64,000 bases of DNA from Waddlia chondrophila WSU 86-1044 (GTDB taxonomy: Bacteria > Chlamydiota > Chlamydiia > Chlamydiales > CAMCWV01). Positions within the stretch are counted from its first letter, which is position 1. Each line of letters starts with the position of its first letter. The position numbers and the translations under genes were made by a program. Below the pieces are notes generated by a model that made no database searches, was not told the DNA's origin, and saw nothing but the letters and a program-made list of their open reading frames with translations. Shown here piece after piece: positions 6,136 through 63,356 of the stretch. Location: NCBI GenBank assembly GCA_945882915.1, contig CAMCWV010000004.1, positions 15,643-79,642 of the forward strand. The letters run 5' to 3'.

Positions 6136-6229
6136 TATTCTGTCCTAAGGTTCATTCGAATGGGCGGTAGTGTAGCAAAAACTCCCGTTTTATACGAGTA
6201 AAGCTTCTTTGCTTGCAAGAGGCACAGGG

Positions 6230-8540: not shown

Positions 8541-8567
8541 AAAATTATAACGCTGTGTTGTTTTGCT

Positions 8568-11894: not shown

Positions 11895-11999
11895 GCCTTT
11901 GCCATCAAGAGCTTCGCTACCGCCCCGCTCCGGGCACGCTAACCAACAAGCGTTAAACAGGTTAAACGTTGACTCAAAGGCTCGCTGTGTAAAGGCCTG

Positions 12000-14084: not shown

Positions 14085-17000
14085 ATGAAAGATCGTTTTG
14101 CTGTTGGTTCTTTTCAAGACAACATGAAACAGCTCTATACCGCCCATATCATCCATAGGCAAGGGGATCCCAATGTCGAGGTTGCGGGGAAAGAGCGGCT
14201 AAAGCGCACCCAGGAAATTAGCACATTTGCTGTTCGCCATTTGATCAAAGCCAAGGCCTTGCAAAGCGGCGATAAGATCGAGGTTGACGAGTACTATAAA
14301 AAGATCCGCGTTTCCAATAAAGAAAAGTTTAAGTCGTTTTCCTTTAAAGAGTTGGGGATTCTCTTTGACAAAGGCTCACCAAAAAGTAAGCATACAGATG
14401 ATGCGTTGCCTCAGGTAACAGTCGAGGCCTTTGCCGAATCCCTTGTCCATAACATCCCTTTTGCCAAGTCTGCTCGCCTTCGCTACCTAAAAGACGCTGT
14501 TCTTGACCGGTATGCCATGTTCTATTTCACTGACTATCTGTGGGATACGTGGAAAATGCTCTCGATGAACGGGCTTCTTTGGAATATGCTCTCTTTGCCA
14601 GAGAGGATTTTTCACTACGGTCTTGCGGCCATCAACCTCTTGGGCTACGCCTATTTTAGCATTAGAGATCTCGCTAAAAACAAGTTCCCTCAGCTTAAGC
14701 GGGAATTCACCATGTGGATGTTCCAGCGAAATAAGGTCCCTCTTTCTTTGATAGATGCAATGGAAGGGGTTATTCAGTTTTTAGAGATGAAGCGGTCACA
14801 ATCAGCTGAGTACGATCAGGTCATCAATGAATACAAAGCCTGCCGGCGCATAGCCCTTGAGCTTGAGAAGATAAAGGGCTGGACAGTGCCTTTTCAGGTA
14901 AGCGGCGTTAAGAGGCTCGCTGAAAGGCAGGGGAAGGCTATTTCGCAGCTTAATGAGGGGCAGCGTCATCTTGTTCCGGGTGGGGTTTATAAAAATGGGC
15001 AGTTCATCCCTTTTCTCTATGAATTTGAACGGGGAATGGGGGAGGAAAAAGATAAGTGCCTTGTCCGTATCATTGATGTTCACGGGACGTTTTCTTCTTA
15101 TCAAGGGAGTGTCCAAAATGAAGAGACGGGAAAGCTAAAGGCGATCCCTTACATTTCGTTTACGATGGATCTTGCTAGAGCCTCTAATGCAGAAGATGTC
15201 TTGCAGCCACTCTTGGAGCTTCAGCTCCCGGCAGCTTATGCGGAGTTTAAAGCGCCAGAGACGATTGAAATGGCAAGAGCGTTCCTCCAAACGGGCCTTC
15301 TTAAGGCAGCCGATAGAGTTGAGTCGTTGCAAGATCATTGGGCAATACGCCGCGTGGGGAACTATGCCATTGTGCCTGCTCTAAAAGGACTTTCTGGAGT
15401 AACGCAGGTCATTTCGAACTGCTTTGGTTTTGCGGATCTTGGATCAGAGACTCTCGAGAGGATCCTGCCAGAGCTTCAGAAGCTTGACTATCCTAAGAAT
15501 CCGGAGCCGGATGATCCGAAGCTTATGAAGCTTGCAAAGCAAGGAAAGGGGGCCTACAAAACTGCCTGGGCGCTTTTGAAGCTCCGCTTCCCAGATCAAT
15601 GTGCCCGTCTGCAATTGGAGCTTAAATATACCGTTCTCTGTCAGCTTTTTGAAAATGAGAAGGCGCTGCTGTCTAAAGATGCAGGTGCTAGAGAGAGGGC
15701 GGTCATTCGGGAGTGTATTCAAGAGTGGGCTGATTTATTTGAAAAGAGCGCTCCAAAGTTATTTGCTAATGACGACATTCAGCTGCAAGAAGTCCACGGA
15801 ATGAATGAGCGGTTGGAGGGGATTCTTCAACAAATTCAAAAGATGGAAGAGGGGCTTGTTCGTCCTGTTAAAGAGCTTGTAATTCCAAAAAGATGTGTAA
15901 CAACCAATCATGGAAGCGTTGGTCTTTCTGCGCTTGCTCATGTCGATGGTTATGCGCCGATCCCTGCTAAATCGCTTGCGCCTATTATTTCAAGAAGTGT
16001 GATTGACTGGGCTCAAGGTCCTTCTGTCTCGGTGGCTGCTTTTGAGGGGTATCTTAAAGAGATGGACGCTCTTTGTAAGAAGGGTGATGATCACAAGTGG
16101 GAGGCCATTGACGTTGCTGCTGTGGATCTTTTGCGGCAGCTGCCAATTCCAACAGTGGGTGAAAGTATAGATCCTGTTTGGGATAGCAAGATGACGCCTG
16201 AGCAAATTTCGCATTGGCAAGAACTTGTGCACAGAGCGCGTGAATACGTCTGGAAGGCAAATCACATAAGGCAGACAGATGGGGTGACAGGGGTACATGC
16301 CGAGGCGCTTGCTAGAAGTGCAGCTGTGAGTCTAAAGCTGGCAATGCGTAATAAAGATGTAAACATGATAGGGCCTGTTGCGGGAATGGACCTGAGTCCC
16401 TTCGAGGCCATCACAGACAACAAGACCTTCTATTTTGCAAGTAAGGAGCAAGAAGATTCGGTGAGGGGTTGTCTTGACTTTATGCGAGAGGTAAATAAGC
16501 TATCTGAAAAAGAGTTCCCCCTGAGTGGGATTCACCTGTTAAACAAATCTTTAGGTGTTGGGGGAATACAAGATTGGAGGGAGGAGAGAGCGCTCTGGAT
16601 ATATGTAGAGGCTATTTACCAGAAGATCCATGGAGTTTTCGATTTTGATTGCGCTCTTAATCCAGCAGAGCGTTTTAAACATTTAAGAGAGGTGTCAACC
16701 TCTCTGGACTACCCTAGGCTTCCTGGAGTTAAGAAGCATCTTTCGACGCTGAAAGCTGTTTTACAGAAGCTTCCCCCAAAAGACTACACGGAGATTGCTA
16801 AGTTAAAGACGCTTCTTGAGCGTTTACCACAGGCATTTGAGTTTACTGGAGAGGATGCTGCTATTGAAGGTAAGTTAAAGGCGCTCAGTGACGAGCTGAA
16901 CTTGTTGCGTGAGCAGCTTAAGATCAAAAAAGACATCCCTCTCACATCCATTGGAAAGATGTACCCTAGAGAGATTTCGCAAGTTACTGGGGGGGAGGCA

Positions 17001-20000
17001 AAGAAGTTTTATGAGCTTCAACAGAAAGCAGAGATTTTAGCCGATTTAGGAGAGAAGGGGTACAACCATCCAGATATCACCCATTTGCGCCTTTGTGATT
17101 TGCAGTTAAAGACAATGCTTTCTAATCGCAACTGCTATTACGAGCGCGGCGTGATGGGGCTTTCTAAAGAAGCAGCCTTTCAAGCTTACGGCATTGCCCG
17201 TGGAGAGGTGCGCCTCGATAAATTTAGCAAAGATTTTGAGGCAACACGCCGCCGGTTCATCTCTTATGCGATGTCTAAAAAAGGGGAGCCTTACTTTTCG
17301 TTTAGAAGAGAGGGGAATACACAATCTTTTATCGACTACCTGGCGAGCTACAAGTGGGGTCTGGATTTCTTTTTGCTCAGTACAGGGCTTTCACTTGGCA
17401 ACACCTTTATGGCCGGTGGAATTAAGGCGCTTTTGATGGAAATTCTTCGGCTGATTTTTTCGTTGGAGTTTTGGGCGTTGGGGGGGATTTTTGGGTCTTC
17501 GTGGTTGATCTACCGCAATATGTATGGGCATGCACTTGTACGTGCTGATGTGATGTGTGAGCCTTATGGGCTCTGTTTGGGGTCTTGGGATCATCATAGG
17601 TATGACTTTGCTCGCAGCCGGGATGCAGAAGGGATTGGTAAGCCCTACGGAGGGTCTGGAGATGATGCTTTCAACCGTACTAGGGTCATAAGGGAAGATG
17701 TCGTTGGATTTCGCATTGGCGCCGATGATTATGATCCTTGGACTGCAGAAAAGACAGAGCAGAAAGTTATTGCAGATGCAGAGAGAATCGGAGAGCTTAC
17801 TCTTGAGCAGTCACGGGATTTGCAAAGAACGCGGCTTAACGCTGCTGAGATTGGGGAAGTCCTTGATTATTACTCAGATAACCCACTTCTTTTAGAAGAA
17901 GGTCCCCATCAACACCTTTTAGAGCGCGCATTGACTAGATATGGAAAAATGACCGAAGCGCTCGGTAGGCAGCCAGAGCTTGTCGCCCGCTTTAATCGCT
18001 TTTTCTCTAAGCAACTTAACTGGGCGCGCATGGGGCAAAAGGTGCAGGAGCAGCTTTTTCTGGCCCGCTTGTCAGAGCGTGTTAACACCTATATTTCAGA
18101 TAATGATGTGGCTAAAATCGTTTTTCACGCCCTGCCAAAAGAAGGTGGCGAGGCTGAGATTGGTACTGCTGTTTTGCGGGTGTTAGGCGAATTGGAACGC
18201 GACCAGACTCTTGGAAGGAGCCGGTCTTCGCTCAATACAGAGCTTCTTCGGAAGCTTCAGGAAAATGCGCGACTGCTTGCAGATCAAACAGGTCGATTAG
18301 CCAGGGAAGCTAAAGAGGCTCGATCAGCGCTTTCAGTTCGAATAGCTGAATTAGAAGGGGAAATTCGAAGAGTTCTTGCCGCTCAAGCCGCTCAAACCGC
18401 TGGAGGCTTTCAAATATATAGCAGGAACAAACCTGATCCACTAGAGGCTGAATTTGCAAGTCTTCGACTCAAGCAGGAAGATGCAAGCGCTCGATTAGCA
18501 CCTGGAGTTGCAAGTGCTCAATTAGAGTTTGTGAAGGGGCTTGATAGGTTTGGCGATGATATAGAAGGGCTTTCTAAAGAGATGCTTGAAGATCTCGAAA
18601 ATTCTAAGCTTCAAGAAGCGGTTATCGCGCTACAGGATCTTCTCAAGAAAGTAAGAGAAGGGATTCCAAACCGCCTTCTTTCAAAACAGATTCTCGACCA
18701 GTGCGTCAAGCAGTGCCGTGATGGGACCGCTGCTTATTTAAAGCATTTAGTCCCCATCCACGCCCATATCATCGCCGCGTACGCTTCTTATTCTGAAGCA
18801 GAGTTGCAATCTCTGGGTACAGAAGAGCTCCTTAGCGTTATCAAGAGCTTCTTTGTTGTGCGCGGCGCCGAAGAGGACGCAGCACATCGCGATCCTGTGT
18901 TTAATGATAGTGTCAATGAGGCTGTCTTAAAGCTGATGCCTATTTTTAAAGGACGTCTTAGTGATGATGCAACGAAAGAGCCACTCCTTAACGCTATTTT
19001 ACGAGCCGTTCACCCCGAAGCTACTGATCAAAAATGGGAAGGGACATCGACCTTTTTTACCTGTAAAGATTGGGAAATCGACATTGCCAACGGGCGTGTT
19101 TACCATCAAGGTTACTTAAAAACAGAGCTCCCCTATTCGGTTCTAAAGAATGAGGGTGTTCTTCGTCTTTTTGGCGGAGGGCCCATTCCTTGCAAGCTGC
19201 AGTGCAGCCAGAACTCTTATAATAAGAGTCAGGTGAGAAAGTTTACTTTTGAGAAAGGGGGCGATCACTACTCCATTATTCAGAGAGCTGACGAGTCGAT
19301 TGCCATCTACAAAGAGATCCTTAATATCCATACAGGCGTTCAGTCTTGGCATCAATGGATTCATCAGGAGATGCAAGGAGAAGAAAGTAAGGTGGCCTCA
19401 GCAGAGGACCGGGCGGGAAGAAGAACCTTGCCTAAGCCTGTGACAGATAACATTTGCTGGGTCGATTGTGATCAGCCCGCACACTTCCTTATTTGTGATG
19501 AGGGAGGAAAGGAGCTTTATAGGGGCACTTTGAGGGGGAAGAGTATTTATAGCTTGTACAACCTCAAGTACCCAGAAGGAGAAAACACCGTTCTTCGCGT
19601 TTGGGGTAATAAATCTTCACTTGAAGCGTTAACACGCATCGCTCCCCCTGAGCAGATTGAAGTGTTGGGGACGGCGGAAGGGGCTCCTAAGACCATTGTT
19701 TATCATAATTACAATCAGTCATTCTCTATTGATGAAGAGGGGATTGCTCATAGCGGAAATGATGCCCACTTTGTTCTTACCGACAAGCAAAAGTTGAATG
19801 TGAGGGGGCTTGGAAGCCACTTTCAGCACTTCCAAGTCGTTAAGCACGATGAAGATCAGATTGAAAGGGTGCTTATTCCTGCCAGTGAGATTGCCCAGAC
19901 AGTAAATTCTTTGAGCGCGCAGGCTGTGGGAATGGGCGTTGATGCGGTAACAGGGATTGCGACAGGAGGGAGGACCCCTCAGCAGGCCCTTGGTAACATG

Positions 20001-23000
20001 CAAAAGCAGCTTGCAAATGTTGCTAAGACAGAGCTTATTAAACAAGGGCTGTGGCTTATATTTAAGACCTATATGGGCAGTCGCCTCAGCGCGTTCTTTG
20101 GCCCAGACACCGATTCTAAGGCAGAGACTCCCGAAGTGACTTTCAAATACCAGAGTCAAAGTGACCTTCTTGCTTTTGAGATAGACCCTTATGACAGACG
20201 TTTTAAAACAAAGAACAAAGAGTCGTATCTCTATTTGTCTTACATGTTCTTGGCTTACGGAAAGCACAAGGAGGCGCTCTATTATTTAAAACAGGCAAAG
20301 ACCTCTCTTGCTTGGAGCGATAAAGCCAAAGACTATATTCGGTTAATGCAACAGTGGCCAGATGACTCTGCTGCTTCCAAGGCATTTAAGCTGCAGCTTG
20401 AGTTGATGTTCTGCGAAAATCAGATGAGCTTGCTCGGAGATGACCTTAAGAAAAAAGACACCTCCTTTAAGGGGATGCGCACCTACATTACGCTTATGGG
20501 ATTGCAGGTCCGTTATGAAGAGTATCAGGAGATTGAAAAGAAGCTGCCGGGAGATCTTCATTTAACTAGTGGTGATAAACGCGTTTACATGGAGCTTTTA
20601 TCGCAACTGGCTACCATTACGGGGCAAAAGCCAAAGCCTACAGTGCCAATCATCCCTCTTGCAGAAGAGACAGTTGATCCTTCGTCCATTACCCCTCCAC
20701 ATCTGGACTTTGGGGGAAACCCGTTGCTTGATATGCGTAAAAAGTTTAGTAGCACCCTTTATTATGCCCAGGAGAGCAAAAGATCGAGCAGAAGCACGCT
20801 CACTACTAAAATCAAGTTTGGCGATGAGGGATTCAAGGTTAGAGCGGGAAGGGAATTGATTCGGAACTTCGATGTTTACTTGAACATTGCAACAACGAAA
20901 AATCCTGGAGATAAAGAGTTTGATGATCTTTGCAAGCGGCTTGATCTTATGGGAGATAAGATCAAAGAGGTGCAAATGGCTAGATGGTATTTGCATGTTG
21001 CAACGGAGCTGCGAAGGAAAGGGGAGGGTCTTTCTTCTATAAAGCTCCCTGAATTTAAGTTTGAGTATGAAACTAAAAATCAGAGAGATCAGAGAGCAGG
21101 AGTTTTGCCTTCTGTAGCACAGCCTGGAGGATTTTGGGAAAAGTCACCGGCGGCTAGTCCTTCTGGGATGTTTTTGGGCAGAGTTAAGGATTCGTTTTCA
21201 TGGGCGTGGGATAGGATAAAGAAATACACGTTTTGGCAGGCTTATAGTCTGGTTTCTACAAGTGAACTTGACAGCAGATATCGCCAAGAGCTTGTAGATG
21301 ATATCGATAAGGTGTGCGGCGAGTTAGATAGCCTTGCCCGGCATAACGGCATTGGCAGTGTGAAAAAGCGCCCTCCACGTGGCGGGGCACGCCCTGTAGT
21401 TGAGGCTCAATCAGAAGTTCAGCTTCTTGCAGGGAAGGCAGAAGCACGCCGCAAGCTCCAAGAGCGGGCCGCGGGTAACAGCAATCTGGGGGGCGTTATC
21501 CAGGGACTTGGAGGGCTTGATAGCCTCGGAGGGTTCCTTCAACAGGTGATCTCTCAAGGAGCTCACGGAATTACCTCTATTCAGCAGATGATCCCTGTCC
21601 CTTTTAGACCGCTTCTTTCTGGAAAAACTGAAACGCTTCATCGCATCGAAGAGGCCCTTGACGGTATTTTAGAAAAAGCAGAAGAGGTTCTTGCTAAGAT
21701 CCCCGGAAGCACGCGAGATCAAAAACGAGATGCCCTCATGCAATGGCTAAAGATGCAAGTCAGCGGGCTTGGAGATAATCCGACAGCAAAGATGATTTGG
21801 GCGGTCACAGGGCCGGCGCTTGGGATTGACTTAGAGGTTGCAGGGCTCATTGTAGAGGCCTATTCCGAGTCGATTATTCAGGGGATTCTTCTTGTTCTTG
21901 ATACCCGGACCCCCTCGGCTGTTAAGCGGCACTGGCGAGCTGCAATGGACAAGGAAATTGACCTTCATTCAGAGCACCTTAAGCGGCTTGATGCAGTTGA
22001 AGAGGCCCTTAACAAATGCGTTAAACAGAAAATCCCGAGTTGGGAGGGGATCTTTACAACGCGGGGTGTAGAGATGTCTCGAGAGGATTACTTCCATCTA
22101 GATACGGGGATTCCTAAACTTGCTGCAGATGCTTTTAAGAAGGAGTGGAGATTTGGGCTTGACAAGGTCGCACGGGGCGAGGTCGCACGGGGTGAGTTGA
22201 ACCCTGAAAAAGTGGAGATTCAGGTGATACGTAATAGGGTAAGGACAGAGCTTGGCGATTACCTTTGTGGGAAGAGAACGCTTCCTCCTAAATGGCTCTT
22301 TAATCCAGAGGCGAAAGATCTTTTTGAGTCGGTCATTTTCCTTCATGAACAGTTGCAGGAGCGTTTGCCGGGCTTTTTATGTCCTGTTATTGTTGCTCAA
22401 GAAAAAGAACTCTTATTTGATGTTCTTAAAACGGCATCTTTAATACCTCAAGAGGTGCAATTAGAGTGCATCACAATTGAACAAGTCAATAAATACTTTG
22501 AAAATTTAAAAACCTCTTGGACAGGCCCAGGGGGGACCATCCCTCCACATCGCAAGCGTGTGCTCGATAGAGAGTGGACCGACGCACAGCATACGATTAC
22601 TGAAAAGAAGGCGAAGGCTCAGACAGAAGGTTTTAAACTTCCTATTCCTAAAACAGCAGTAGAGGCGCACAGTCAGCTTGGTGAAATTAAAATTCTTCGC
22701 GATCAGGCGATTGAAAAGGGGCAGGAGCTGCAGAAGAAAGCAGAAGACTCTCGGACGAAGGCACTTCGTCTTATTAATGACCCACCACTAACGCCTCTTA
22801 AACAGGCCTATCAAGATCTTCATGTTCTTGTAGATAAGCATGAAGAGGTGTTTTTCCCTGAGGTGAAGCGTTTGTGGCTGCAGGGAAGGCTTTTTGATCT
22901 GTGCAAAAAGAATCCTCAGCTAACACACGAAAATTTAGCTGAGTTAGAAGGGTTTGTTACAGAGCACCTTCAAGCAGGTAATGAAGCCGTTCAGGCCCAG

Positions 23001-26000
23001 CGCCTTTGCCGTGCTTTCCAGTCTCTTGAAGAAGGGGTGCAGAAGGTAGTTAATCCAAAAGGGCTCTCTAAAGAGAAGCGGGAGCAGCTCCCATTGAAGA
23101 TTAAAGAGGCTCACTCTTTGATTACGCAGCAGCTTTCGTTGGCCCGTACCTACAAAGTGGACTCTTCACAGCTTTATTCACGCGCTTGTCTGATGATCGA
23201 GAATGTCAAAGGGTATGTTCTTCGCCCTGAGCAGGTGGAGGTGTTCTACGAGCTTTCTAGAGACCCTACCAAGGTGAAGCAGCTCATTATGGGGTCGGGG
23301 AAAACAGAGGTGGGGAACGTTGTCATCATGTTGATGTTGGCAATGGGGAACAATCTCCCACGCTGGATTGGGCCAAAAGCGCTCTTTAATGTTAATAGTA
23401 GAGATCTTGACAGCATTTGTCCTGAACACTTTGGGCAAGAGCTTTATCGGTTTGAATTCGAAAGGAACATGCTCAAGGATGCCGCCTCGGTACAGAAGAT
23501 CTATCACAGAGAGATGGAGACGATGGCGGGCCGTGGGTTTGCCATGAACACGCGGGAGAGCATGCAGTGCGCCGAGCTCTACTGGCTAAAGAACATTGAG
23601 GATCTTGAGAAGGCTCCTGTGGAGGCAACCGAGGATCTGGAGTCGCAAGACAAATATTTGACAGAGCTTTTGAAGATGTGGCGTAAACGAGGGTACATCC
23701 TCAACGACGAAGTCGATAGCGTAAACGATCCTACCCACCAGTACATTTTTGCGTGTGGCGCTTCTGAAAAGCTCGGCAAGCAGCCGATTAAGATCAATGC
23801 AGCACTTAATATGATGCGTTTGATTTTGAAAAACCAAGAGTGGAAAGAGCGGCTAAAAATCAAAAACAACCTCCAGCAGAACCTCTCTGAAAAAGATCAT
23901 GAAGAGCTGCGGCTGTTTGTTGCTAATTGCTTTTTTGATGAGTGTGTCACGAAAGGAAGTCTTAAAGAGGAAAATCGTGAAGAGTTCATCCTTTTTGTAA
24001 CAGGGGACCAGCGTACTGTTAAGATCCCTGCGTGTGTGACGCTCTCTCCAGACAAAGAGTTTTTTAAGGAGGTGGCTGTTGTTAAGACGCTGCTTACGAC
24101 AATTGTTGAAGGAGCTTTGAGCAAGAAAGGGAACGTCAACTACGGCCCTGAGATGTTTGAGGAGATGCAGAATGGGAAGAAAGTCTTCAGGAGAGGTCGC
24201 TGGGTTGTTCCTTATATTGCCCATGGAAAGCAAAGGCCAGGAAGCATCCACGGTAATGAGCTTGAAAGGATCATCTTCCACATCTTGAGTTATCTCCAGC
24301 TGGGGGTTACTTTCGATCAAATTAAAGAGAGGCGTGACACTCTTCAGGCTGAGGCAATTACCTTGAAGCAGTCAGAGCAGTACGCGCCGGGCGCGACCTC
24401 TCCTGAGCAGCAGTGGAGATCTTACGGCTGGACAGGAGAGGTCGCGCTTCTTGATGTTACAGATGAAGATCTTAGAGGTGTTGTAGAAACCCTCAACAGC
24501 ACAGAGGGGGATCTTGAGGAGGAGTCAATCCTGAAATACTTGGAGCAGGTGCTTCTTCCTGAAATGGAAATTCACGGCCAGACACTGGAAAGTAATTCTC
24601 AGAATTTTGGTGATCAGAATAGGTTCTTTGCGGGCTTCTCTGGAACTGTCGGCAAAATCTATGCCTTGAATGATAAGATCACTGAAAAGAGCAAGACGGC
24701 AAGGCTTGGGACAAACGGGGAGACTCTTGAGGCGATCCTTCGAAAGAGCAATAACGGAATGGATGAGGTTGACACCTATGGGGGTGAGACCGCAGAAGAG
24801 CGTGTTAAGGAGCTTTTAGAAAAGTGCAAGGGAGCCAACTTCTTTGTCGATGGAGGGGCGGCGCTTGACTGTACCGATCCTCAGGAGTTTGCTGCTCGCT
24901 GCGCTGAGGAGCAGTCTAAAATTGAGATCAGAGATCAAGCGCACAAGATTGTAGGGGTTGTCTTCTTCAATAAGGAAGATAGCTGGGTTGTTCAGTTTGT
25001 TGGGCAAGATCATCCAACGCCTGTTGAGGATGTAGGGGGTGTGGCTCTCAAGAACTTATTCACCCTTTATGACCATGGACACCGTATTGGGGCGCATAGG
25101 CTTCAAGATGCTTCAGCAGAGTTTGTGGCAACTGGGGGCGCTAAGACCGATTTTGAAGATGCCGCTCAGAGTTGGGCCCGTGCAAGGGGGCTTTGGACGA
25201 AAAAACAGAAGCCTAGACACCTTGTTTCAGATGAGACCAGAAAGCTTATTAAGGGCAAAGAGAGCAAAGAGCCTTTACTTGTCGGGGAGTATGTGGGGCA
25301 CCTCTTTGCCAACCAGGCAGATGAAGAGGCAAAGGCAAATTACAAAGCCTCGCGTCACAAGATCATGAATATCATGCGCAGCGCTCTTATTAGTTCACTT
25401 CTTGACGCTCCTGATGCGTACGCTAGAAGAGATCTTCTTAAGTGCTACAAAGAGCATCTTTTTAAGACGAGCTCAGAAAATTATATAGCGATGCTTCAGG
25501 TCGAGAAGATGGATACGCCAGAGAATGCGTTAAAAGCACTTATCGAAGCTGAGCAGGATAAGATCACGGGGATTTTGGGCGCTCTTCCAGAGCGTCTTCT
25601 TGGGGGGCAAGAAGGTCTTTTTAAGGCTGCATATCAGCGGCTTGAGGCCTATAAAGAGCCAAGTGCTACGGGAGATACTCCAGGGATTCTCCCGCCAGAA
25701 TTTTATCCTGAAAAAGTGCCGATGCACGAGTCTTCTGCCCAAACAGAGGTTACTGTTGAGCAAGAGCAAGAGGCCGAGCAAGAGGCAGAGGAGGAGCTTG
25801 ACCTCGAAACCAAGAAGCAGGTCGCCCAGAACAACTTTAAGAGCAAGTGGAAACCTTGGCTTACAACTGGAAGGTCATCTCCACTACTGTATAGATTCAT
25901 GTCTGAGACAACTTCGCAGCTTGATAGCAAGCTAGGGGATGAGTTTAAAGGGGTATTTGATAAGCGTGTGCTTTTCTCTCCAAATATGATTCCGCAAGGT

Positions 26001-26528
26001 GAAAGAGCTTTGTGGGGATACCAAAAGCCGATACATGATCTTTTGGTGGTATATGGTCTTTCTGGAAAAGCGTGGACGGTTATTGCCTGTGATGCCCTAG
26101 ACAAAGACCGGGAGCTAGAAGATCTATTTAAAAAGCACAAAGACCCTGATATTAAAATAGGGCACTACTCGATGCGTGAAAAGAAGATGCAGAGATGGAG
26201 TAACGCTTTTAGTGATGAGGAGCTTGGATCAGAAGGTTTCTTGAGGTTAACGGTGCAGTGTCACTTCTTTAATGCTGAGACTCATTACCAAGGGATAGTT
26301 GAAAAGGATTCTCGCAAAAACACAGAGTACTCTGTTCTTCAGAAATGGTTAAGCGAGCACCCGCATGACAAGATGATTAAGCTCTATAAGAGCTCGGCTG
26401 CAGTCTTCCGCGACAAAGCGCAGAAGTACGAGAAGAGTGTTCTTAGTAAAGGGTTTGCCTCCATCAAGAGCGTTCAAGAGGCCGAAATTTCAAGGCGTCA
26501 AGCTGAGCGCCTCTTAAAAAGGCCGTAA
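14085..26528 (+). CDS. Giant (4147 aa) multidomain protein of unknown function with a C-terminal-third P-loop NTPase module; candidate secreted/inclusion-membrane protein
   Basis: A single uninterrupted 12.4-kb frame. Hydrophobic blocks at nt 14508-14670 and 17358-17520. Walker A GSGKT at 23292-23306 and DEVD at 23706-23717. Acidic run EQEQEAEQEAEEE near the C-terminus. The start has no obvious SD. Confidence 0.85.
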   Translation: MKDRFAVGSFQDNMKQLYTAHIIHRQGDPNVEVAGKERLKRTQEISTFAVRHLIKAKALQSGDKIEVDEYYKKIRVSNKEKFKSFSFKELGILFDKGSPKSKHTDDALPQVTVEAFAESLVHNIPFAKSARLRYLKDAVLDRYAMFYFTDYLWDTWKMLSMNGLLWNMLSLPERIFHYGLAAINLLGYAYFSIRDLAKNKFPQLKREFTMWMFQRNKVPLSLIDAMEGVIQFLEMKRSQSAEYDQVINEYKACRRIALELEKIKGWTVPFQVSGVKRLAERQGKAISQLNEGQRHLVPGGVYKNGQFIPFLYEFERGMGEEKDKCLVRIIDVHGTFSSYQGSVQNEETGKLKAIPYISFTMDLARASNAEDVLQPLLELQLPAAYAEFKAPETIEMARAFLQTGLLKAADRVESLQDHWAIRRVGNYAIVPALKGLSGVTQVISNCFGFADLGSETLERILPELQKLDYPKNPEPDDPKLMKLAKQGKGAYKTAWALLKLRFPDQCARLQLELKYTVLCQLFENEKALLSKDAGARERAVIRECIQEWADLFEKSAPKLFANDDIQLQEVHGMNERLEGILQQIQKMEEGLVRPVKELVIPKRCVTTNHGSVGLSALAHVDGYAPIPAKSLAPIISRSVIDWAQGPSVSVAAFEGYLKEMDALCKKGDDHKWEAIDVAAVDLLRQLPIPTVGESIDPVWDSKMTPEQISHWQELVHRAREYVWKANHIRQTDGVTGVHAEALARSAAVSLKLAMRNKDVNMIGPVAGMDLSPFEAITDNKTFYFASKEQEDSVRGCLDFMREVNKLSEKEFPLSGIHLLNKSLGVGGIQDWREERALWIYVEAIYQKIHGVFDFDCALNPAERFKHLREVSTSLDYPRLPGVKKHLSTLKAVLQKLPPKDYTEIAKLKTLLERLPQAFEFTGEDAAIEGKLKALSDELNLLREQLKIKKDIPLTSIGKMYPREISQVTGGEAKKFYELQQKAEILADLGEKGYNHPDITHLRLCDLQLKTMLSNRNCYYERGVMGLSKEAAFQAYGIARGEVRLDKFSKDFEATRRRFISYAMSKKGEPYFSFRREGNTQSFIDYLASYKWGLDFFLLSTGLSLGNTFMAGGIKALLMEILRLIFSLEFWALGGIFGSSWLIYRNMYGHALVRADVMCEPYGLCLGSWDHHRYDFARSRDAEGIGKPYGGSGDDAFNRTRVIREDVVGFRIGADDYDPWTAEKTEQKVIADAERIGELTLEQSRDLQRTRLNAAEIGEVLDYYSDNPLLLEEGPHQHLLERALTRYGKMTEALGRQPELVARFNRFFSKQLNWARMGQKVQEQLFLARLSERVNTYISDNDVAKIVFHALPKEGGEAEIGTAVLRVLGELERDQTLGRSRSSLNTELLRKLQENARLLADQTGRLAREAKEARSALSVRIAELEGEIRRVLAAQAAQTAGGFQIYSRNKPDPLEAEFASLRLKQEDASARLAPGVASAQLEFVKGLDRFGDDIEGLSKEMLEDLENSKLQEAVIALQDLLKKVREGIPNRLLSKQILDQCVKQCRDGTAAYLKHLVPIHAHIIAAYASYSEAELQSLGTEELLSVIKSFFVVRGAEEDAAHRDPVFNDSVNEAVLKLMPIFKGRLSDDATKEPLLNAILRAVHPEATDQKWEGTSTFFTCKDWEIDIANGRVYHQGYLKTELPYSVLKNEGVLRLFGGGPIPCKLQCSQNSYNKSQVRKFTFEKGGDHYSIIQRADESIAIYKEILNIHTGVQSWHQWIHQEMQGEESKVASAEDRAGRRTLPKPVTDNICWVDCDQPAHFLICDEGGKELYRGTLRGKSIYSLYNLKYPEGENTVLRVWGNKSSLEALTRIAPPEQIEVLGTAEGAPKTIVYHNYNQSFSIDEEGIAHSGNDAHFVLTDKQKLNVRGLGSHFQHFQVVKHDEDQIERVLIPASEIAQTVNSLSAQAVGMGVDAVTGIATGGRTPQQALGNMQKQLANVAKTELIKQGLWLIFKTYMGSRLSAFFGPDTDSKAETPEVTFKYQSQSDLLAFEIDPYDRRFKTKNKESYLYLSYMFLAYGKHKEALYYLKQAKTSLAWSDKAKDYIRLMQQWPDDSAASKAFKLQLELMFCENQMSLLGDDLKKKDTSFKGMRTYITLMGLQVRYEEYQEIEKKLPGDLHLTSGDKRVYMELLSQLATITGQKPKPTVPIIPLAEETVDPSSITPPHLDFGGNPLLDMRKKFSSTLYYAQESKRSSRSTLTTKIKFGDEGFKVRAGRELIRNFDVYLNIATTKNPGDKEFDDLCKRLDLMGDKIKEVQMARWYLHVATELRRKGEGLSSIKLPEFKFEYETKNQRDQRAGVLPSVAQPGGFWEKSPAASPSGMFLGRVKDSFSWAWDRIKKYTFWQAYSLVSTSELDSRYRQELVDDIDKVCGELDSLARHNGIGSVKKRPPRGGARPVVEAQSEVQLLAGKAEARRKLQERAAGNSNLGGVIQGLGGLDSLGGFLQQVISQGAHGITSIQQMIPVPFRPLLSGKTETLHRIEEALDGILEKAEEVLAKIPGSTRDQKRDALMQWLKMQVSGLGDNPTAKMIWAVTGPALGIDLEVAGLIVEAYSESIIQGILLVLDTRTPSAVKRHWRAAMDKEIDLHSEHLKRLDAVEEALNKCVKQKIPSWEGIFTTRGVEMSREDYFHLDTGIPKLAADAFKKEWRFGLDKVARGEVARGELNPEKVEIQVIRNRVRTELGDYLCGKRTLPPKWLFNPEAKDLFESVIFLHEQLQERLPGFLCPVIVAQEKELLFDVLKTASLIPQEVQLECITIEQVNKYFENLKTSWTGPGGTIPPHRKRVLDREWTDAQHTITEKKAKAQTEGFKLPIPKTAVEAHSQLGEIKILRDQAIEKGQELQKKAEDSRTKALRLINDPPLTPLKQAYQDLHVLVDKHEEVFFPEVKRLWLQGRLFDLCKKNPQLTHENLAELEGFVTEHLQAGNEAVQAQRLCRAFQSLEEGVQKVVNPKGLSKEKREQLPLKIKEAHSLITQQLSLARTYKVDSSQLYSRACLMIENVKGYVLRPEQVEVFYELSRDPTKVKQLIMGSGKTEVGNVVIMLMLAMGNNLPRWIGPKALFNVNSRDLDSICPEHFGQELYRFEFERNMLKDAASVQKIYHREMETMAGRGFAMNTRESMQCAELYWLKNIEDLEKAPVEATEDLESQDKYLTELLKMWRKRGYILNDEVDSVNDPTHQYIFACGASEKLGKQPIKINAALNMMRLILKNQEWKERLKIKNNLQQNLSEKDHEELRLFVANCFFDECVTKGSLKEENREEFILFVTGDQRTVKIPACVTLSPDKEFFKEVAVVKTLLTTIVEGALSKKGNVNYGPEMFEEMQNGKKVFRRGRWVVPYIAHGKQRPGSIHGNELERIIFHILSYLQLGVTFDQIKERRDTLQAEAITLKQSEQYAPGATSPEQQWRSYGWTGEVALLDVTDEDLRGVVETLNSTEGDLEEESILKYLEQVLLPEMEIHGQTLESNSQNFGDQNRFFAGFSGTVGKIYALNDKITEKSKTARLGTNGETLEAILRKSNNGMDEVDTYGGETAEERVKELLEKCKGANFFVDGGAALDCTDPQEFAARCAEEQSKIEIRDQAHKIVGVVFFNKEDSWVVQFVGQDHPTPVEDVGGVALKNLFTLYDHGHRIGAHRLQDASAEFVATGGAKTDFEDAAQSWARARGLWTKKQKPRHLVSDETRKLIKGKESKEPLLVGEYVGHLFANQADEEAKANYKASRHKIMNIMRSALISSLLDAPDAYARRDLLKCYKEHLFKTSSENYIAMLQVEKMDTPENALKALIEAEQDKITGILGALPERLLGGQEGLFKAAYQRLEAYKEPSATGDTPGILPPEFYPEKVPMHESSAQTEVTVEQEQEAEQEAEEELDLETKKQVAQNNFKSKWKPWLTTGRSSPLLYRFMSETTSQLDSKLGDEFKGVFDKRVLFSPNMIPQGERALWGYQKPIHDLLVVYGLSGKAWTVIACDALDKDRELEDLFKKHKDPDIKIGHYSMREKKMQRWSNAFSDEELGSEGFLRLTVQCHFFNAETHYQGIVEKDSRKNTEYSVLQKWLSEHPHDKMIKLYKSSAAVFRDKAQKYEKSVLSKGFASIKSVQEAEISRRQAERLLKRP

Positions 26529-26594
26529 GCCCCTCTAACCGCTCTAAATAAAAATCGCGGAAGCGAAGCTCTTTGAGTTGCCGCAAAAATCAAA

Positions 26595-26684
26595 CAGGGG
26601 CCTGAAAGGTCCTAATGTTACAGCGGGAAGCCTTCCGCTAACGCTTCGACCTCAGGCTGTAACATTAGGACCTTTCAGGCCCTT
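26595..26684. repeat. Family B palindromic element, copy B1 (short variant)
   Basis: caggggcctgaaaggtcctaatgttacagc ... gctgtaacattaggacctttcaggccctt. The arms match B2 at 51575-51789. Confidence 0.85.
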
Positions 26685-26706
26685 GTTCAATTAATGTGTT
26701 CAGCTC

Positions 26707-26982
26707 GGCATTGCCCGCGTAATTGCAATTGCAGCCTTACAGGCTGCATGGGATATATTCGCTTATACCCAGGGCGCTGCCCTGGGCTATGTGCATTTTC
26801 AGCCCTTCAGGCTGAAGCTGGGGAGCTGAGGCGCTTTTAGTTAAAGCCTTTTGCATAAAGTCTCAGCCTGTAAGGCTGAAAATGCACACAGCCCAGGGCA
26901 GGCGCCCTGGGTATAGGCAAATATATTTTACGCAGCCTGTAAGGCTGCTACTCTTAGGGGGCTGTAATTATGCAATAATGCC
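26707..26982. repeat. Family C nested palindromic element, copy C1 (full length)
   Basis: Termini ggcattgcccgcgtaattgcaatt / ctgtaattatgcaataatgcc. Local hairpins gcagccttacaggctgc, cccagggcgctgccctggg and agcccttcaggct, each mirrored in the right half. Homologs at 55650, 63076, 50189 and 61065. Confidence 0.9.
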
Positions 26983-27128
26983 ACTCAGCTCTCCTTCCCT
27001 TAAATTTTGTCAAAAAATAGATGGTTTTTCTCCCTCTAGCGCCCTGGGGGAGATTTTAAAGTTCCTGAGGCAAACGCCGATAAGAGTAAATAGAGATTTC
27101 TGTCTACTTTGAATTAAGGAATTAAGCC

Positions 27129-27774: not shown

Positions 27775-27804
27775 CTATACTCCTCTTAGCTGAAAACTGG
27801 AATT
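27775..27804. repeat. Family D half copy (D2, left arm only)
   Basis: ctatactcctcttagctgaaaactgg matches the left arm of D1/D3. No matching right arm follows. Confidence 0.6.
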
Positions 27805-28350
27805 CTATAATTTTTTGAATGGTTGCGGAAAAGGTTGGGTTGATCCTATAGTTCTAGACTAGGGTGACTTCATAGGTCACAGCTGGGAATGTTAAGGACG
27901 CTCCATGATACATCATTTTAATGCGTTATCGCGTCCTCTCCCAGTAAAAAAATTATCAAAACGAACACTTCGAAAGGGTGTCGTTCGTGTAAAGAGTTGG
28001 ATAGTAGTCGGATTCGGTATTTTTAGCCTTTTAAGAGGCATTTCCCCTTTTAAGCTTAGAGCTGTGTAAGAGTTTCCGGGCAAGTGGTAATCAGTTCCTT
28101 CAGAGCGTAGTTAGGGTATTTCAATTTTTAACTCGCGGCCTGTTGAATAAAAAGATTTTTGGTACGGCGCGCAACGCATGATTATACATAAGGAAAACTT
28201 TCTTCATCATTCTAAGCGCTCCTCTGGATCTATCATGGGGATATCCATGGAAATGCCACTAGAAATATCATTAGGGTCTAGACTTTTGTGACTATCAGCA
28301 ACGCTCAGTACACCAACGCATAGCCTTTCGTCAAAACACAGGTTGACGAA

Positions 28351-35262: not shown

Positions 35263-35360
35263 ATATACTCCTCGTAGCTGAAAACGGGAACTTGAACGGC
35301 GCCAAAGCCCCGGGGCTTTGGCGCCGTTCAAGTTCCCGTTTTCAACTACGAGGAGTATAT
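35263..35360. repeat. Family D element, copy D3: 98-bp near-perfect palindrome
   Basis: 49-nt arms atatactcctcgtagctgaaaacgggaacttgaacggcgccaaagcccc / ggggctttggcgccgttcaagttcccgttttcaactacgaggagtatat. There is a single mismatch (C opposite A). Confidence 0.95.
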
Positions 35361-35387: not shown

Positions 35388-35568
35388 GGAGTGAGCGGGG
35401 CGAACTCTTTGGAGTGCAGGGACTTGTCCTAGCTTTCATTAAGCGGGACATGTCCCGCTTAAGACACATAGGTATGCTTGCTAAGGTTCAGAGGGCTCGA
35501 CATGTCGAGCCCTAATGAAAGCTAGGACAAGTCCCAGCACTCCAAAGAGCTACGCTACCGCTTGCTCC
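35388..35568. repeat. Family A nested palindromic element, copy A2
   Basis: Outer arms ggagtgagcggggcgaactctttggagtgcagggacttgtcctagctttcatt / aatgaaagctaggacaagtcccagcactccaaagagctacgctaccgcttgctcc. Inner palindromes ttaagcgggacatgtcccgcttaa and agggctcgacatgtcgagccct. Confidence 0.9.
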
Positions 35569-35632
35569 TTAAGCGGGGCCTGAGCTAAACGTTGTTAATC
35601 ACGCAGAGGCCCTTAAAACGCGGCCTTTCCCC

Positions 35633-48521: not shown

Positions 48522-48555
48522 AGGCTGCCTAAAAAACACCAAAGCGTGAGAGAGG

Positions 48556-48721
48556 GAATTAAACGCAAAGACGTAAAGTAGCAAAGACGCAAAGAAATAC
48601 AAGAGAAAGAAGAAATACAAGAACAGGATGGGCAGGAGCCGCCTCACGGCGGGCAGGATAAAAAACAGGATAATGGATTTTTCTCTCTGCCCTGTATTCT
48701 CTGCGCCTTTGCGTTTAATTC
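48556..48721. repeat. Family E palindromic element, copy E1
   Basis: Imperfect inverted arms gaattaaacgcaaagacg...caaagaaatacaagagaaagaag / ttctctctgccctgtattctctgcgcctttgcgtttaattc. The core is shared with 6230-6280. Confidence 0.65.
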
Positions 48722-48746
48722 TTTCTTTTGCTTTGAGTTTGCTGAC

Positions 48747-50188: not shown

Positions 50189-50262
50189 GGCGTTGCCCGC
50201 ATAATTGTAATTGCAGCCTTACAGGCTGCTACTCTTAAGGATCTATAATTATGCAACAACGC
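50189..50262. repeat. Family C minimal derivative, copy C4
   Basis: ggcgttgcccgcataattgtaattgcagccttacaggctgctactcttaaggatctataattatgcaacaacgc. This is the two C termini plus one hairpin, with the whole interior missing. Confidence 0.8.
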
Positions 50263-50333
50263 TCCGCTTAGTTACCGCTTCCGCGGTTTTTAAGCTGTTG
50301 AGCAGAAAAAATAGTTGAAATTAAAATAATTGA

Positions 50334-50619: not shown

Positions 50620-51558
50620 ATGTCCCACCATCATCACAAAAATTCTAGCAAGCGCAAACATGATGATAAGAAGCCTGACGATAAGAAGCAGGCCCTGCCT
50701 AAGCTGGCGCCTGCTAATAAGCCCAAGATAGATGTCCGTAAAATGGCAGGGGGTAAGCTGCCTCCCAAAATCGACAAGCGCACACTCCAGTTTGCTAAGT
50801 ATGTTAGAAGTCCGGGAGCTCCAGTTGATGTTGGTGCAGCCGCGCCATTACCCCAGCCGCCCGCATCTCAGGACTGGATATCTGCTTGCAATAACTACTT
50901 CGGGATGATGGGAAATGATACTTATAACAACTGCGCCTTTGCAGCAGCTGGCCACTGTATGCAGGTGTGGAGTGCTAATGCCAATACAGAACGTACTATT
51001 GCCGATGCCGATATCAGTAATGCTTACACAGCTTTTGCGGGGCCTGTAACAACCAATGTGCCATGGACAAACACTCCCAAAGGGCCTCCTTTAGTTGAAT
51101 TGAGTGTGTTGAGTCATTGGAAAAATATAGGAATTGATGGCGATCAAATTAATTCTTATCTGGCGATCACGCCCACAAATACGGCTTATATTAAGACGGC
51201 GATCTACTGGTTCGGCGGCGTATATGTTGGGATTGATTTGCCAATGACTGCTTATAATCAGTATTCCAACGGTCCTTGGACGGGGCCTGGCGATACCGGT
51301 TTTACAGCTCTTCAGGGAAGCTCCGCTGCTGGTTCATGGGGAGGGCATGCAGTGGTGATTGCTGCTTATGATACAACAGGGCTTACATGCATCACTTGGG
51401 GAGCGACTCAGCGGATGACCTGGAGTTTCTTTAATACCTACTGCGACGAGGCCTACGCCCTGCTCAGCCAGGATTGGATTAAGACAGTCTCGGGGCTATC
51501 GCCACTAGGAAACGGGTTTGACATGGCCGGACTAACTGCCGACTTAGCCAACCTCTAA
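50620..51558 (+). CDS. Papain-like (C1-like) cysteine protease with His4 / Lys-rich disordered N-terminus; candidate secreted effector
   Basis: 312 aa. N-terminus MSHHHHKNSSKRKHDDKKPDDKK. Putative catalytic Cys in YNNCAFAAAGH (tgc 50932-50934). Putative catalytic His in GGHAVVIAAYD (cat 51346-51348), comparable to papain DHAVxxVGY. Followed by ITWG. Confidence 0.68.
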   Translation: MSHHHHKNSSKRKHDDKKPDDKKQALPKLAPANKPKIDVRKMAGGKLPPKIDKRTLQFAKYVRSPGAPVDVGAAAPLPQPPASQDWISACNNYFGMMGNDTYNNCAFAAAGHCMQVWSANANTERTIADADISNAYTAFAGPVTTNVPWTNTPKGPPLVELSVLSHWKNIGIDGDQINSYLAITPTNTAYIKTAIYWFGGVYVGIDLPMTAYNQYSNGPWTGPGDTGFTALQGSSAAGSWGGHAVVIAAYDTTGLTCITWGATQRMTWSFFNTYCDEAYALLSQDWIKTVSGLSPLGNGFDMAGLTADLANL

Positions 51559-51574
51559 CCCGCAAAATTCAAAT

Positions 51575-51789
51575 AGGGGCCTGAAAGGCCTTAATATTAC
51601 AGCCCAGGTCGAAGCGTTAGCGTAAGGCCTGGGTAAGACGAAGTATTCAATCTGAGTCCTGTAAGGACGGTAGAAATTGAAGTTATTAACTATGCCGTCC
51701 TTACAGGACTCAGGGGTTTATTGCATTTTACCCAGGCCTTACGCTAGCGCTTCGGCCTGGGCTGTAATATTAAGGCCTTTCAGGCCCCT
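51575..51789. repeat. Family B nested palindromic element, copy B2 (full length)
   Basis: 62-nt arms aggggcctgaaaggccttaatattacagcccaggtcgaagcgttagcgtaaggcctgggtaa and its complement, with 2 mismatches. An inner palindrome gagtcctgtaaggacgg...ccgtccttacaggactc lies at 51653-51712. Confidence 0.92.
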
Positions 51790-51840
51790 GCTTAATTTTT
51801 GAGGAAGCTTCAAAGTCTTGCCTGAGCAGAGGCTCTAAAT

Positions 51841-55649: not shown

Positions 55650-55861
55650 GGCATTGCCCGCATAATTGCAGCCCCTTAAGAGTAGCAGCCTTACAGGCTG
55701 CGTAGGATATATTCGCTTATACCCAGGGCGGTGCCCTGGGCTGTTCGCATTTTCAGCCCTTCAGGCTGAACCTGAGAAGCTGAGGTGGTTTTATAGTAGT
55801 TAAAGCCTTTTGCATAAAATCTCAGCCTGTAAGGCTGCAATTATAATTATGCAACAAGGCC
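55650..55861. repeat. Family C element, copy C2 (right half internally deleted)
   Basis: ggcattgcccgcataattgcagccccttaagagtagcagccttacaggctgcgtaggatatattcgcttatacccagggcggtgccctggg...tctcagcctgtaaggctgcaattataattatgcaacaaggcc. Lacks the mirrored cccaggg hairpin block. Confidence 0.88.
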
Positions 55862-58727: not shown

Positions 58728-58950
58728 AAAATTAAACTCAAAGAAGCAAAGAAGCCTTCCATCAGCCATCTCTGACCGCTTTAAATTTAATCTTTTTGTC
58801 GCACTTCACTGTTGAATGGGCCGGTCAAATACGCTTAAAGTGACTTGCGAAATGCTGTCCAGTTTTTGGGCTCCAACATACTAAAATGTTTAATCGGTCA
58901 AGTATGGAAAAATAGGGGGGGGGTAGAGAGGGGCAGCTTTAGTCATAAAA

Positions 58951-60984: not shown

Positions 60985-61064
60985 TGTGGGCTTTGTGGGC
61001 GCTAAATCAACGTTTATTGCAGGCTTGATTGAGGATGATTTTCAGGGTTTATGAGTTGTGCAAA

Positions 61065-61125
61065 GCACTGCCCGCATAATCCACTAAAGAAAAACAGTAA
61101 AGCCTTTTTTTGCATTTTCTCTGAG
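61065..61125. repeat. Family C degenerate fragment, copy C5
   Basis: gcactgcccgcataat (a C terminus) followed by gtaaagcctttttttgcattttctctgag (resembles the C core ttaaagccttttgcataaaatctcag). The interior is missing. Confidence 0.4.
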
Positions 61126-61187
61126 CTCTTTCACGCCTCTGAGGATTTTGTGCTGAGGAAAGGATAAGGGTAGAAGAGTAAGGAATT

Positions 61188-63075: not shown

Positions 63076-63356
63076 GGCGTTGTTGCCTAATTACAGCCCT
63101 TTAACAGTAGCAACCTTACAGGCTGTGTAGGACATATTCACTTATACCCAGGGGGCTGCCCTGGGTTGTTTGCAGGTTCAATCCTTCAGGCTGAACCTGA
63201 GAAGCTGAGGTGGTTTTATAGTAGTTAAAGCGTTTTGCATAAAATCTCAGCCTGAAAGGTTGTAATTGCAAACAGCGTAAGGGCAGCGCCCTGGGTATAG
63301 GCGAGCATATCCCATGCAGCCTGTAAGGCTGCAATTACAATTATGCGGGCAATGCC
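63076..63356. repeat. Family C element, copy C3 (full length)
   Basis: ggcgttgttgcctaattacagccctttaacagtagcaaccttacaggctg ... gcagcctgtaaggctgcaattacaattatgcgggcaatgcc. The core is the same as in C1/C2. Confidence 0.9.

Follow-up and report, generated by a model that had tools for sequence, protein, structure and literature searches.

Probable hairpin-mediated deletion and nested inversion in family C, a group of small non-coding palindromes of a chlamydial genome

[quoted passage not shown] They duplicate TA, and their subtypes do not arise from inversion of an asymmetric core. Family C, the subject of this work, has no sequence relationship to Correia elements. It is a group of small palindromes in a 64,000-nt stretch of chlamydial DNA (contig CAMCWV010000004.1, positions 15,643 to 79,642), hereafter referred to as the window, with all coordinates counted from its position 1. 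Family C is probably, with a probability of about 0.58, a set of non-coding mobile palindromes akin to MITEs or to REPINs (paired repetitive extragenic palindromes, REPs) that were reshaped by hairpin-mediated deletion and nested inversion.

The MITEs of the IS903 group of insertion sequences (IS) resemble family C in being small (75-281 bp here), non-coding, multi-copy and intergenic, as every family C copy is, in having internally deleted forms, in terminal inverted repeats starting with GGC and, at C4 and putatively at C1, in a 9-bp duplication. IS903B itself ends in GGCTTTGTTGAATAAATC and makes a 9-bp direct repeat (PMC10569121). Family C differs from this group in that its two termini differ mutually, no cognate IS was found in ~76 kb, two of four copies are without a duplication, and the interior consists of inverted structured modules and holds no transposase-gene remnant. 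The inversion of short segments also has described counterparts. Inversion of a loop or spacer between inverted repeats by replication template switching is documented (PMC8794818; PMC8604942). As in these cases, segments enclosed by paired arms are inverted in family C and the arms are homogenised, and its copy C4 provides an exact reverse complement of a loop between intact stems. Unlike them, where inversions are reported in rRNA, coding or promoter repeats, the inverted segments of family C are successive nested layers of a mobile element, for which such a mechanism is proposed.

When all arms are aligned from the tip towards the core, a full copy consists of two inverted modules of ~95 nt with three hairpins each, around a non-palindromic core of ~50 nt that lies at the tip of a long hairpin. 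From outside to inside, an arm reads tip, optional extra segment, H1, ~19 nt, H2, ~10 nt and H3, where H1 is GCAGCCT-TAC-AGGCTGC (loop TAC, with the ~19 variable nt behind it), H2 is CCCAGGG-N5-CCCTGGG and H3 is CAGCC-CTTC-AGGCTG (loop YTTC). There are two types of terminus of ~20 nt, a (GGCRTTGCCCGC..., tip sequence GGCRTTGCCCGCRTAATTG) and b (GGCNTTRTTGCA..., tip sequence GGCNTTRTTGCMTAATTAYA), which are imperfectly complementary and occur once each per copy. The extra segment (CCCYTAAGAGTA, 11-14 nt) is bracketed by short GCAGCC repeats and present in some arms only. It was read at 26948-26961 (C1 right), 55672-55685 (C2 left) and 63097-63110 (C3 left), as an initial annotation of this DNA had it, and additionally at 50230-50243, on the right side of C4. 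GTAG stands directly before H1 only in the arm with the extra segment of each copy; the opposite arm lacks it, and so do the phage modules described below. The common + orientation of the core in C1, C2 and C3, claimed in the same annotation, was borne out by a forward identity of 71-91% between the cores versus 42-49% for the reverse complement. Long hairpins are formed by all copies. As a single strand, C1 folds into one long hairpin of -97.4 kcal/mol (z = -13.9), and so does C3 with -68 kcal/mol (z = -7.8). Private variants are common to both arms of one element, such as spacer 2, which is GTG in C1 and TTT in C3. All 4-kb segments of 1-64000 have a positive GC skew (0.07-0.17), alongside the + orientation of the core in C1, C2, C3 and C5, i.e. 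four cases, which is not significant.

A chance origin of the repeats is excluded, since the 17-nt hairpin GCAGCCTKWMAGGCTGC occurs nine times in the window where 0.09 occurrences are expected, and the tip patterns a and b four times each versus at most 0.01. The similarity between copies stops exactly at the tips, at GGC, and 9-bp direct repeats surround C4 and C1; the copies were therefore inserted as whole units. The duplication at C4 is also present in three other assemblies, and the calculated probability that the 7/9 match at the C1 flanks is due to chance is about 1e-3. Four of the five copies counted in the initial annotation are clear, whereas the fifth, C5, is only a weak remnant (local alignment score 22, p~0.005 versus shuffles) with 15/16 bases of an a-type tip and a core-like part. 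The lengths proposed for C1, C2 and C3 agree with those found here (276, 212 and 281 bp), and C4 reads 75 bp instead of 74 bp.

The description of C2 as half-deleted and of C4 as minimal was right, and the routes of deletion are readable at the junctions. In C2, the junction TCAGCCTGTAAGGCTGC (55822-55838) is a hybrid hairpin that starts like H3', ends like H1' and is joined to the b-tip, while H3' and H1' have the 15-nt direct repeat CAGCCTGTAAGGCTG in common; C2 was thus formed by deletion between the direct copies H3' and H1'. C4 holds one hairpin between its two tip regions and was formed by deletion of everything between H1 and H1'.

The differences between the long copies are of another kind. 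Between C1 and C3, the outer ~50-60 nt of the arms are on swapped sides and the orientation of the 50-nt core is unchanged: the outer arm of C1-left is 96% identical to C3-right versus 64% to C3-left, and that of C1-right 82% to C3-left versus 67% to C3-right. Four linked markers swap, namely the tip type, G/A at position ~19, the extra segment and ATGGG/GTAGG after H1. As they move together, the two copies differ by a swap of whole arm ends and not by an independent indel. It had initially been proposed that either the core or the termini are flipped between copies, with the extra segment as the marker of terminus orientation, unless this segment was an independent indel. For C1 and C3 the flip holds on firmer grounds than those first offered, given the four linked markers and the segment identities, and the extra segment travels with the three other markers. 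As a marker of the terminus it nevertheless fails in C2, where it sits on the a-type terminus. By the tip marker, the termini of C2 are unflipped and have the orientation of C1 (a left, b right), and C3 alone is reversed. What has changed side in C2 is the middle layer alone (extra segment, H1 and ~9 nt after it), with GTAGG on the a side. Three nested layers can be distinguished: outermost the tips, next H1 and its flanks, and innermost the inner arm plus the core. They are combined differently in each of the three long copies. With only the middle layer on the other side in C2, a minimum of two nested exchanges that differ in their breakpoints is required. In all four copies there is a single tip of each type, and the extra segment is found in one arm and missing from the other; a reciprocal exchange, i.e. 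inversion, therefore fits, whereas neither a one-sided conversion nor independent indels would lead one to expect this.

Several assemblies from ENA and Logan contain the same sequence, as does the NCBI metagenome-assembled genome (MAG) GCA_947446165.1. The loop of C4 (50220-50222) is TAC in the window and in the strain contigs L043 and L035, and GTA in L044, a contig from the NCBI MAG. The L044 copy reads GCAGCCT-GTA-AGGCTGC versus GCAGCCT-TAC-AGGCTGC, which is the sole difference across 116 aligned bases. L043 and L044 have ~80 differences from the window in common, which makes them one sub-lineage, and almost none between themselves, so that the C4 flip is recent or both forms coexist in the population. 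This comparison shows that short flips happen at one locus. The stems that bound the flipped loop have only 7 bp. This speaks for template switching at hairpins more than for homologous recombination of the classical kind, and it lends credibility to the 8-bp crossover that C2 requires. An origin of the two C4 alleles in two independent deletions was rejected, as it needs a full copy that survived beyond the split of L043 and L044 and then three deletions, where a single flip suffices. The flip between copies that was initially proposed is indirectly supported by this C4 polymorphism. The initial suggestion that the long inverted arms recombine is no more than plausible, the sole flip seen at a single locus being that of the C4 loop.

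Isomers of family C would arise when the stretch between paired inverted-repeat segments is inverted within the hairpin or cruciform that the element itself forms, either by template switching during replication or by recombination between arms. C3 would be C1 with its inner part flipped, and C2 a C3-type copy in which everything inside the tips was flipped by a crossover in the shared GCATAATT, followed by the deletion. The TAC/GTA polymorphism of the C4 loop could be the same process at its smallest scale. The private variants common to the two arms of an element fit exchange from arm to arm. A nested origin, with an inner element inserted into an outer one that resembled C4, was also considered and was rejected, since it leaves the three different breakpoints and the C4 loop flip unexplained.

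Intergenic palindromes are unusually frequent in the window. A third family of them (CTCTTTGGAGTGCTGGGAC...CTCGACATGTCGAG) lies at 2667-2876, 35388-35603, 43828-44019 and 11907-11930 and is strain-polymorphic: L030 and L031 are without 172 bp of it (window 2684-2854), where a small hairpin remains, and at window 11907-11912 L030 has a complete small palindrome that is 50 bp longer. That full and minimal forms of this family alternate between strains, together with the private variants common to the arms of family C, fits hairpin-driven instability. More families of short inverted repeats (ATATACTCCTCGTAGCTGAAAACGGGAA... and others) occur at 8458-8548, 27775-27806, 35263-35360 and 38463-38517, and at 48551-48726 with 6229-6261.

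Table 1. Positions of family C copies, target duplications, cores and three-hairpin modules in the window, and of related modules on other contigs (R1, covariance model described in the text; RF01687, Rfam model of Acido-Lenti-1)
Feature	Position	Strand	Description
C1	26707-26982		full, 276 bp: a-tip, module, core(+), inverted module, extra segment, b-tip
C2	55650-55861		half-deleted, 212 bp: a-tip, extra segment, module, core(+), fused hairpin, b-tip
C3	63076-63356		full, 281 bp: b-tip, extra segment, module, core(+), degraded inverted module, a-tip
C4	50189-50263		minimal, 75 bp: a-tip, one hairpin, extra segment, b-tip
C5	~61063-61132		probable remnant: a-type tip and partial core, + orientation; weak evidence
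Core	C1 26816-26862, C2 55770-55821, C3 63196-63249	+	same orientation in the three copies
9-bp target-site duplication, C4	50180-50188 left, 50264-50272 right		CCGCTTAGT; 9/9
Putative 9-bp duplication, C1	26698-26706 left, 26983-26991 right		GTTCAGCTC left, ACTCAGCTC right; 7/9
Module, C1 left arm	26720-26826	+	R1, 84 bits
Module, C1 right arm	26852-26959	-	R1, 77.5 bits
Module, C2	55674-55780	+	R1, 85 bits
Module, C3 left arm	63099-63205	+	R1, 66 bits
Module, C3 right arm	63236-63343	-	R1, 56 bits; outside the model-building set
Family B, long copy	51560-51804		modules 51565-51681(-), 66.5 bits, and 51684-51799(+), 67.7 bits
Family B, deleted derivative	26576-26692		abuts C1; R1, 24 bits
Modules of L048, L078, L047			RF01687, 28.6-31.9 bits
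Modules of L108, L127 (viral)	L108 3313-3510 (both arms of an inverted pair), L127 378-422		RF01687, 48.4, 46.1 and 45.7 bits; pass

The three-hairpin module was modelled from an alignment of 31 diverse modules (covariance model R1). Seven strong modules were found in the window, five of them arms of family C and two in family B, which has the family C module in the opposite arrangement, with H1 inward and an enlarged H2 loop. Of the cells in the alignment, 93% are paired. Pairing in H1 and H3 is kept up by compensatory changes, with 44 two-sided cells versus 15 +/- 2.9 after shuffling, a number reached in 0/500 shuffles, and with at most 14 two-sided cells when the pairing is slid by 1-3 columns. 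H2 is invariant across modules, partly since the search pattern required it. Judged from this covariation, the module is a real conserved structure.

Relatives of the module were found outside the window. C1 gave weak matches to phage records, which upon reading showed the H1-H2-H3 layout with other stem sequences. A pattern made of H2 and its flanks gave 118 matches at 111 places in IMG/VR contigs, many of ~90-106 kb and some with several copies. The viral modules are mostly single copies in mixed orientation relative to the neighbouring open reading frames (ORFs), and one locus contains DNA methyltransferase and head maturation protease genes. H1 points inward in the pairs of family B, L023 and L048 and in 12 viral ones, with a constant H2-to-H2 spacing of 125 nt. 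Related viral contigs of ~100 kb differ by one module (L062/L071 versus L100/L080; L049/L083 versus L057/L053/L142). At the cleanest of these sites an insertion of ~110 nt lies between CATAT and ACYGTTAAC with no flanking duplication; at the other, seven consecutive T are replaced and the limits of the change are indistinct. A scan of genomes with the arm pattern gave two places, of which that in L002, a Chlamydiota MAG, is a true relative and that in L001, inside a gene, was rejected as chance; a metagenome scan gave 22 places with L023 as the sole relative. The similarity of L002 to the core in reversed orientation (p~0.02-0.04) was judged not significant. The core pattern had 0 matches in a set of one genome per species, plasmid records had no family C match, the b tip had no match in a scan of viral contigs, and the viral matches to the bare 17-nt hairpin were dismissed as chance only.

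A link between the module and a transposase was found on L046, a contig of a chlamydial relative whose GroEL is 70% identical to that of the window and which has the gene order quinolinate phosphoribosyltransferase, groEL, tetrapyrrole methylase, murF, mraY in common with it. Downstream of groEL, L046 carries a gene (5393-5845) for a 150-aa protein that matches Y1_Tnp (PF01797) with 93 bits and the IS200/IS605 model NF033573 with 68.5 bits (cut-off 55), and reaches 27.7 bits with the RAYT model (cut-off 80). Modules detected by R1 abut both ends of this gene, at 5271-5393(-) and 5852-5974(+) with H1 nearest the gene, with 39.5 and 47.1 bits (E about 1e-9 to 1e-11); L046 had not been seen by R1. 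On both sides of the Y1 gene, at 4880-5180 and 5975-6200, arrays with a 56-nt period repeat the 3' half of the module (half H2, GTAGGATTTC, hairpin GGCCTTGCAGGCC), as REP arrays lie beside RAYT genes. Family B sits at the equivalent place of the window, beside groEL, and looks like the gene-less remnant. The arrangement in family C is the opposite one, as joining of a right end to a left end would give, an origin that stays conjectural. No module was found on L045, another GroEL relative, no Y1 gene in the sequences examined other than L046, and no Y1 relatives in the viral contigs.

Two kinds of enzyme can be proposed for mobilisation. A DDE transposase from the IS903 group of the IS5 family may move the whole family C unit in trans; this candidate is favoured by the 9-bp duplication and by the match of the b tip to the IS903B end at 13-14/18 positions (~11/18 for the a tip), a comparison of 18 bases only with one family chosen among many. 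IS6/IS26 elements make 8-bp duplications. Their ends are similar to the family C tips as well, but for this reason they were regarded as less apt than IS903. The presence of the module on both sides of a Y1 gene in L046 makes an IS200/IS605-type Y1 transposase, likewise in trans, the other candidate. For the movement of entire family C units we lean towards the DDE enzyme, and for the origin of the module towards Y1. Y1 (IS200/IS605) transposition is not known to make a target duplication.

The H2-H3 part of the module aligns to Acido-Lenti-1 (RF01687, gathering threshold 37 bits), with which it shares the stem CCnAGnGC...GCnCUnGG, the CUA, the linker of ~12 nt and the hairpin with a UUC loop. 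Acido-Lenti-1 was rated a probable RNA (Weinberg et al. 2010, PMC2864571) and proposed as a probable small RNA (sRNA) of unknown function (PMC2864571; bioRxiv 10.64898/2026.02.09.704811). Unlike the module, the motif as described lacks H1, is not paired into inverted dimers and is unconnected with mobile DNA. Its threshold is not reached anywhere in the window, C1-left scoring 21.5 bits at permissive settings, and tRNA is the only match of the window at the curated Rfam thresholds. The viral modules of L108 and L127, which pass, belong to the 31-module alignment and each have an additional upstream H1 that is not covered by the Rfam model. By these scores, the arms of family C are distant relatives of Acido-Lenti-1 and not members. 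It can be argued that the motif acts as DNA, because of its inverted dimers, its presence/absence polymorphism and its association with Y1.

The reading of family C as mobile palindromes reshaped by deletion and nested inversion has several observations against it. C1 is identical in the strain contig L032, the C3 isomer is the same in L025, L026 and L027, and in the contigs of other samples colinearity extends across C1, C2 and C3; no assembly contains an alternative isomer at these copies. The full-length or long copies are only three, each in a different configuration, which makes isomer statistics impossible. Left and right are only weakly separated in the inner arms (83% versus 75%), so that the C1/C3 breakpoint is confined no more narrowly than to the stretch from arm position ~50-60 to the core. 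The exchange proposed for C2 requires a crossover inside about 8 identical bases. Target duplications, for which the initial annotation had suggested a search and which exist at C4 and C1, are not recognisable at the flanks of C2 and C3 (3/9 and 4/9). The parent transposase that it had also suggested to look for was not found: neither a DDE nor a Y1 enzyme is encoded in the window or its ~12 kb of flanks, i.e. in ~76 kb of host genome (window, L025 and L028). The IS903-like ends were recognised over 18 bases with one family picked among many, and gain and loss of viral modules without clear duplication is a misfit for a DDE enzyme.

Family C could have come about without any inversion if the module were a REP-like unit moved by a Y1 enzyme and the copies were inverted dimers that had been assembled or partly replaced repeatedly, or had undergone conversion between copies. 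This is rather unlikely. In its favour, the module is found singly and as inverted pairs in both arrangements (outward in family C, inward in family B and in viruses), and REP dimers likewise occur in longer palindromes, head-to-head and tail-to-tail in one genome (PMC3733652). As in REP, REPIN and BIME (bacterial interspersed mosaic element) systems, the units flank a Y1 gene with tandem arrays beside it in L046 and the make-up is mosaic; viral modules are present or absent without clear duplication; and in every copy one arm has GTAG directly ahead of H1, which recalls the GTAG-tagged REPs (PMC3733652). The module nevertheless departs from a REP in its ~95 nt and three hairpins versus a single hairpin of 20-40 nt, in the lack of GTAG from the other arm and the phage modules, and in the L046 protein, which is of IS200 type and not a RAYT. 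Family C has tips, and C4 and C1 have 9-bp duplications outside the tips, which Y1 is not known to make. Moreover, tips, arms and core are common to C1, C2 and C3 over the full length, which implies one full-length ancestor, exactly one of each alternative state per copy is not expected from assembly, and the flip of the C4 loop is left unexplained. A history without rearrangement, in which independent indels and substitutions or a one-sided correction of arms made the copies differ, is quite unlikely. It would agree with the uncoupling of the extra segment from the tip type in C2, with the GCAGCC repeats around this segment, which could favour its gain and loss, and with the visible homogenisation of arms within one element. 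However, turning an a tip into a b tip takes 4-5 substitutions and an indel with the simultaneous reverse change on the opposite side, the four linked markers of C1 and C3 move as one, and one-sided correction equalises arms, yet four copies keep one of each.

Two functional explanations have to be weighed as well. The copies could be paralogous loci of a structured RNA of the Acido-Lenti-1 kind, either a gene or a cis-acting part, a view that draws on the compensatory changes in H1 and H3, on the L108 and L127 modules that pass the RF01687 threshold, with phage modules at 29-32 bits and C1-left below them, and on the rating of the motif as a probable RNA. This is very unlikely: inverted pairs would put the motif on both strands, the orientation to neighbouring ORFs in viral contigs is mixed, C2 and C3 contain no promoter-like site, and presence/absence polymorphism, target duplications and tips are foreign to such a locus. 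The compensatory changes themselves are equally expected of a single-stranded DNA hairpin recognised by a transposase. The hypothesis of a programmed switch, with core inversion by a site-specific recombinase that alters the expression of neighbouring genes, is extremely unlikely. Both orientations of segments with inverted repeats at their ends do occur, and nearly identical strains differ by one flip, but no recombinase is found among the neighbouring ORFs, neither C2 nor C3 contains a promoter-like site, the breakpoints vary by copy, the flipped segment of C4 has just 3 nt, and the contexts are unrelated (past a giant ORF, by tRNA-Cys and murF, in a cytochrome bc operon).

As to these contexts, C1 is flanked by a 4147-aa ORF and a 214-aa ORF, and C4 is placed between divergent ORFs. 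C2 has tRNA-Cys on one side and the Mur ligase gene murF on the other, and C3 begins 12 nt past the cytochrome b stop codon, within a cluster of Rieske, cytochrome b and cytochrome c genes. The flanks beyond the window (7 kb left, 5 kb right) contain no extra family C copies. The variant strain (L043 14974-15113; L044 11773-11920) diverges from the window at 55592/55593, 57 bp left of C2. Its divergent part starts with 61 nt that are also present, reverse-complemented, at window 58763-58822, followed by a new ORF starting MPKGYHHLTRDQR, a start that may resemble that of IS30-family transposases; the contigs end there. The 312-aa ORF beside C4 (50620-51558) has 88% identity between strains, with flanks above 99.9% and dense differences at 51017-51333. 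Dense patches of differences are also present at 21461-25890, inside the 4147-aa ORF (14085-26528), which has a DUF3638 match in the precomputed annotation of the same gene in L028. These patches look like recombination tracts or fast-evolving surface proteins.

The source has a G+C content of about 47%. The named best relatives of the window GroEL are Chlamydiales, Parachlamydiaceae and Protochlamydia with 67-69% identity, and none exceeds 71%. The top matches of a MORN-repeat protein of the window have 43% identity and belong to Rhabdochlamydiaceae and other chlamydiae, and a search for its paralogues returned only orthologues of at most 43% identity from other chlamydiae. By these identities, the host is an uncultured, deep-branching member of the Chlamydiota. 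A cyanobacterial Nezha-type MITE had been the first guess from the style of the sequence and was dropped, the protein matches being Chlamydiota.

A wider reading can be offered as possible, though on the whole doubtful. Instead of an RNA gene, Acido-Lenti-1 would represent two-thirds of a hairpin module of DNA located at the ends of a widespread family of Y1 (HUH) transposon-like elements and of their gene-less dimers, and family C would be a circle-junction permutation of such an element with acquired IS903-like tips. The elements would be spread over Chlamydiota, other bacteria and gut phage genomes of ~100 kb; in family C a right end would be joined to a left end, with H3 inward, and the nested flips might be by-products of the processing of single-strand hairpins.

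Small palindromic repeats break assemblies and are usually dismissed. Family C is a compact natural record of the evolution of hairpin DNA, with deletion between hairpins, probable nested inversions and one flip caught between strains, and an uncultured chlamydial lineage now has at least two related families of mobile palindromes. The module joins three things that had been unconnected, namely a chlamydial IS200-type locus, more than 100 viral sites and an Rfam motif that has had no known function since 2010. If this link is true, Acido-Lenti-1 would have to be regarded as mobile DNA instead, and the range of its hosts could mark exchange between phages and bacteria.

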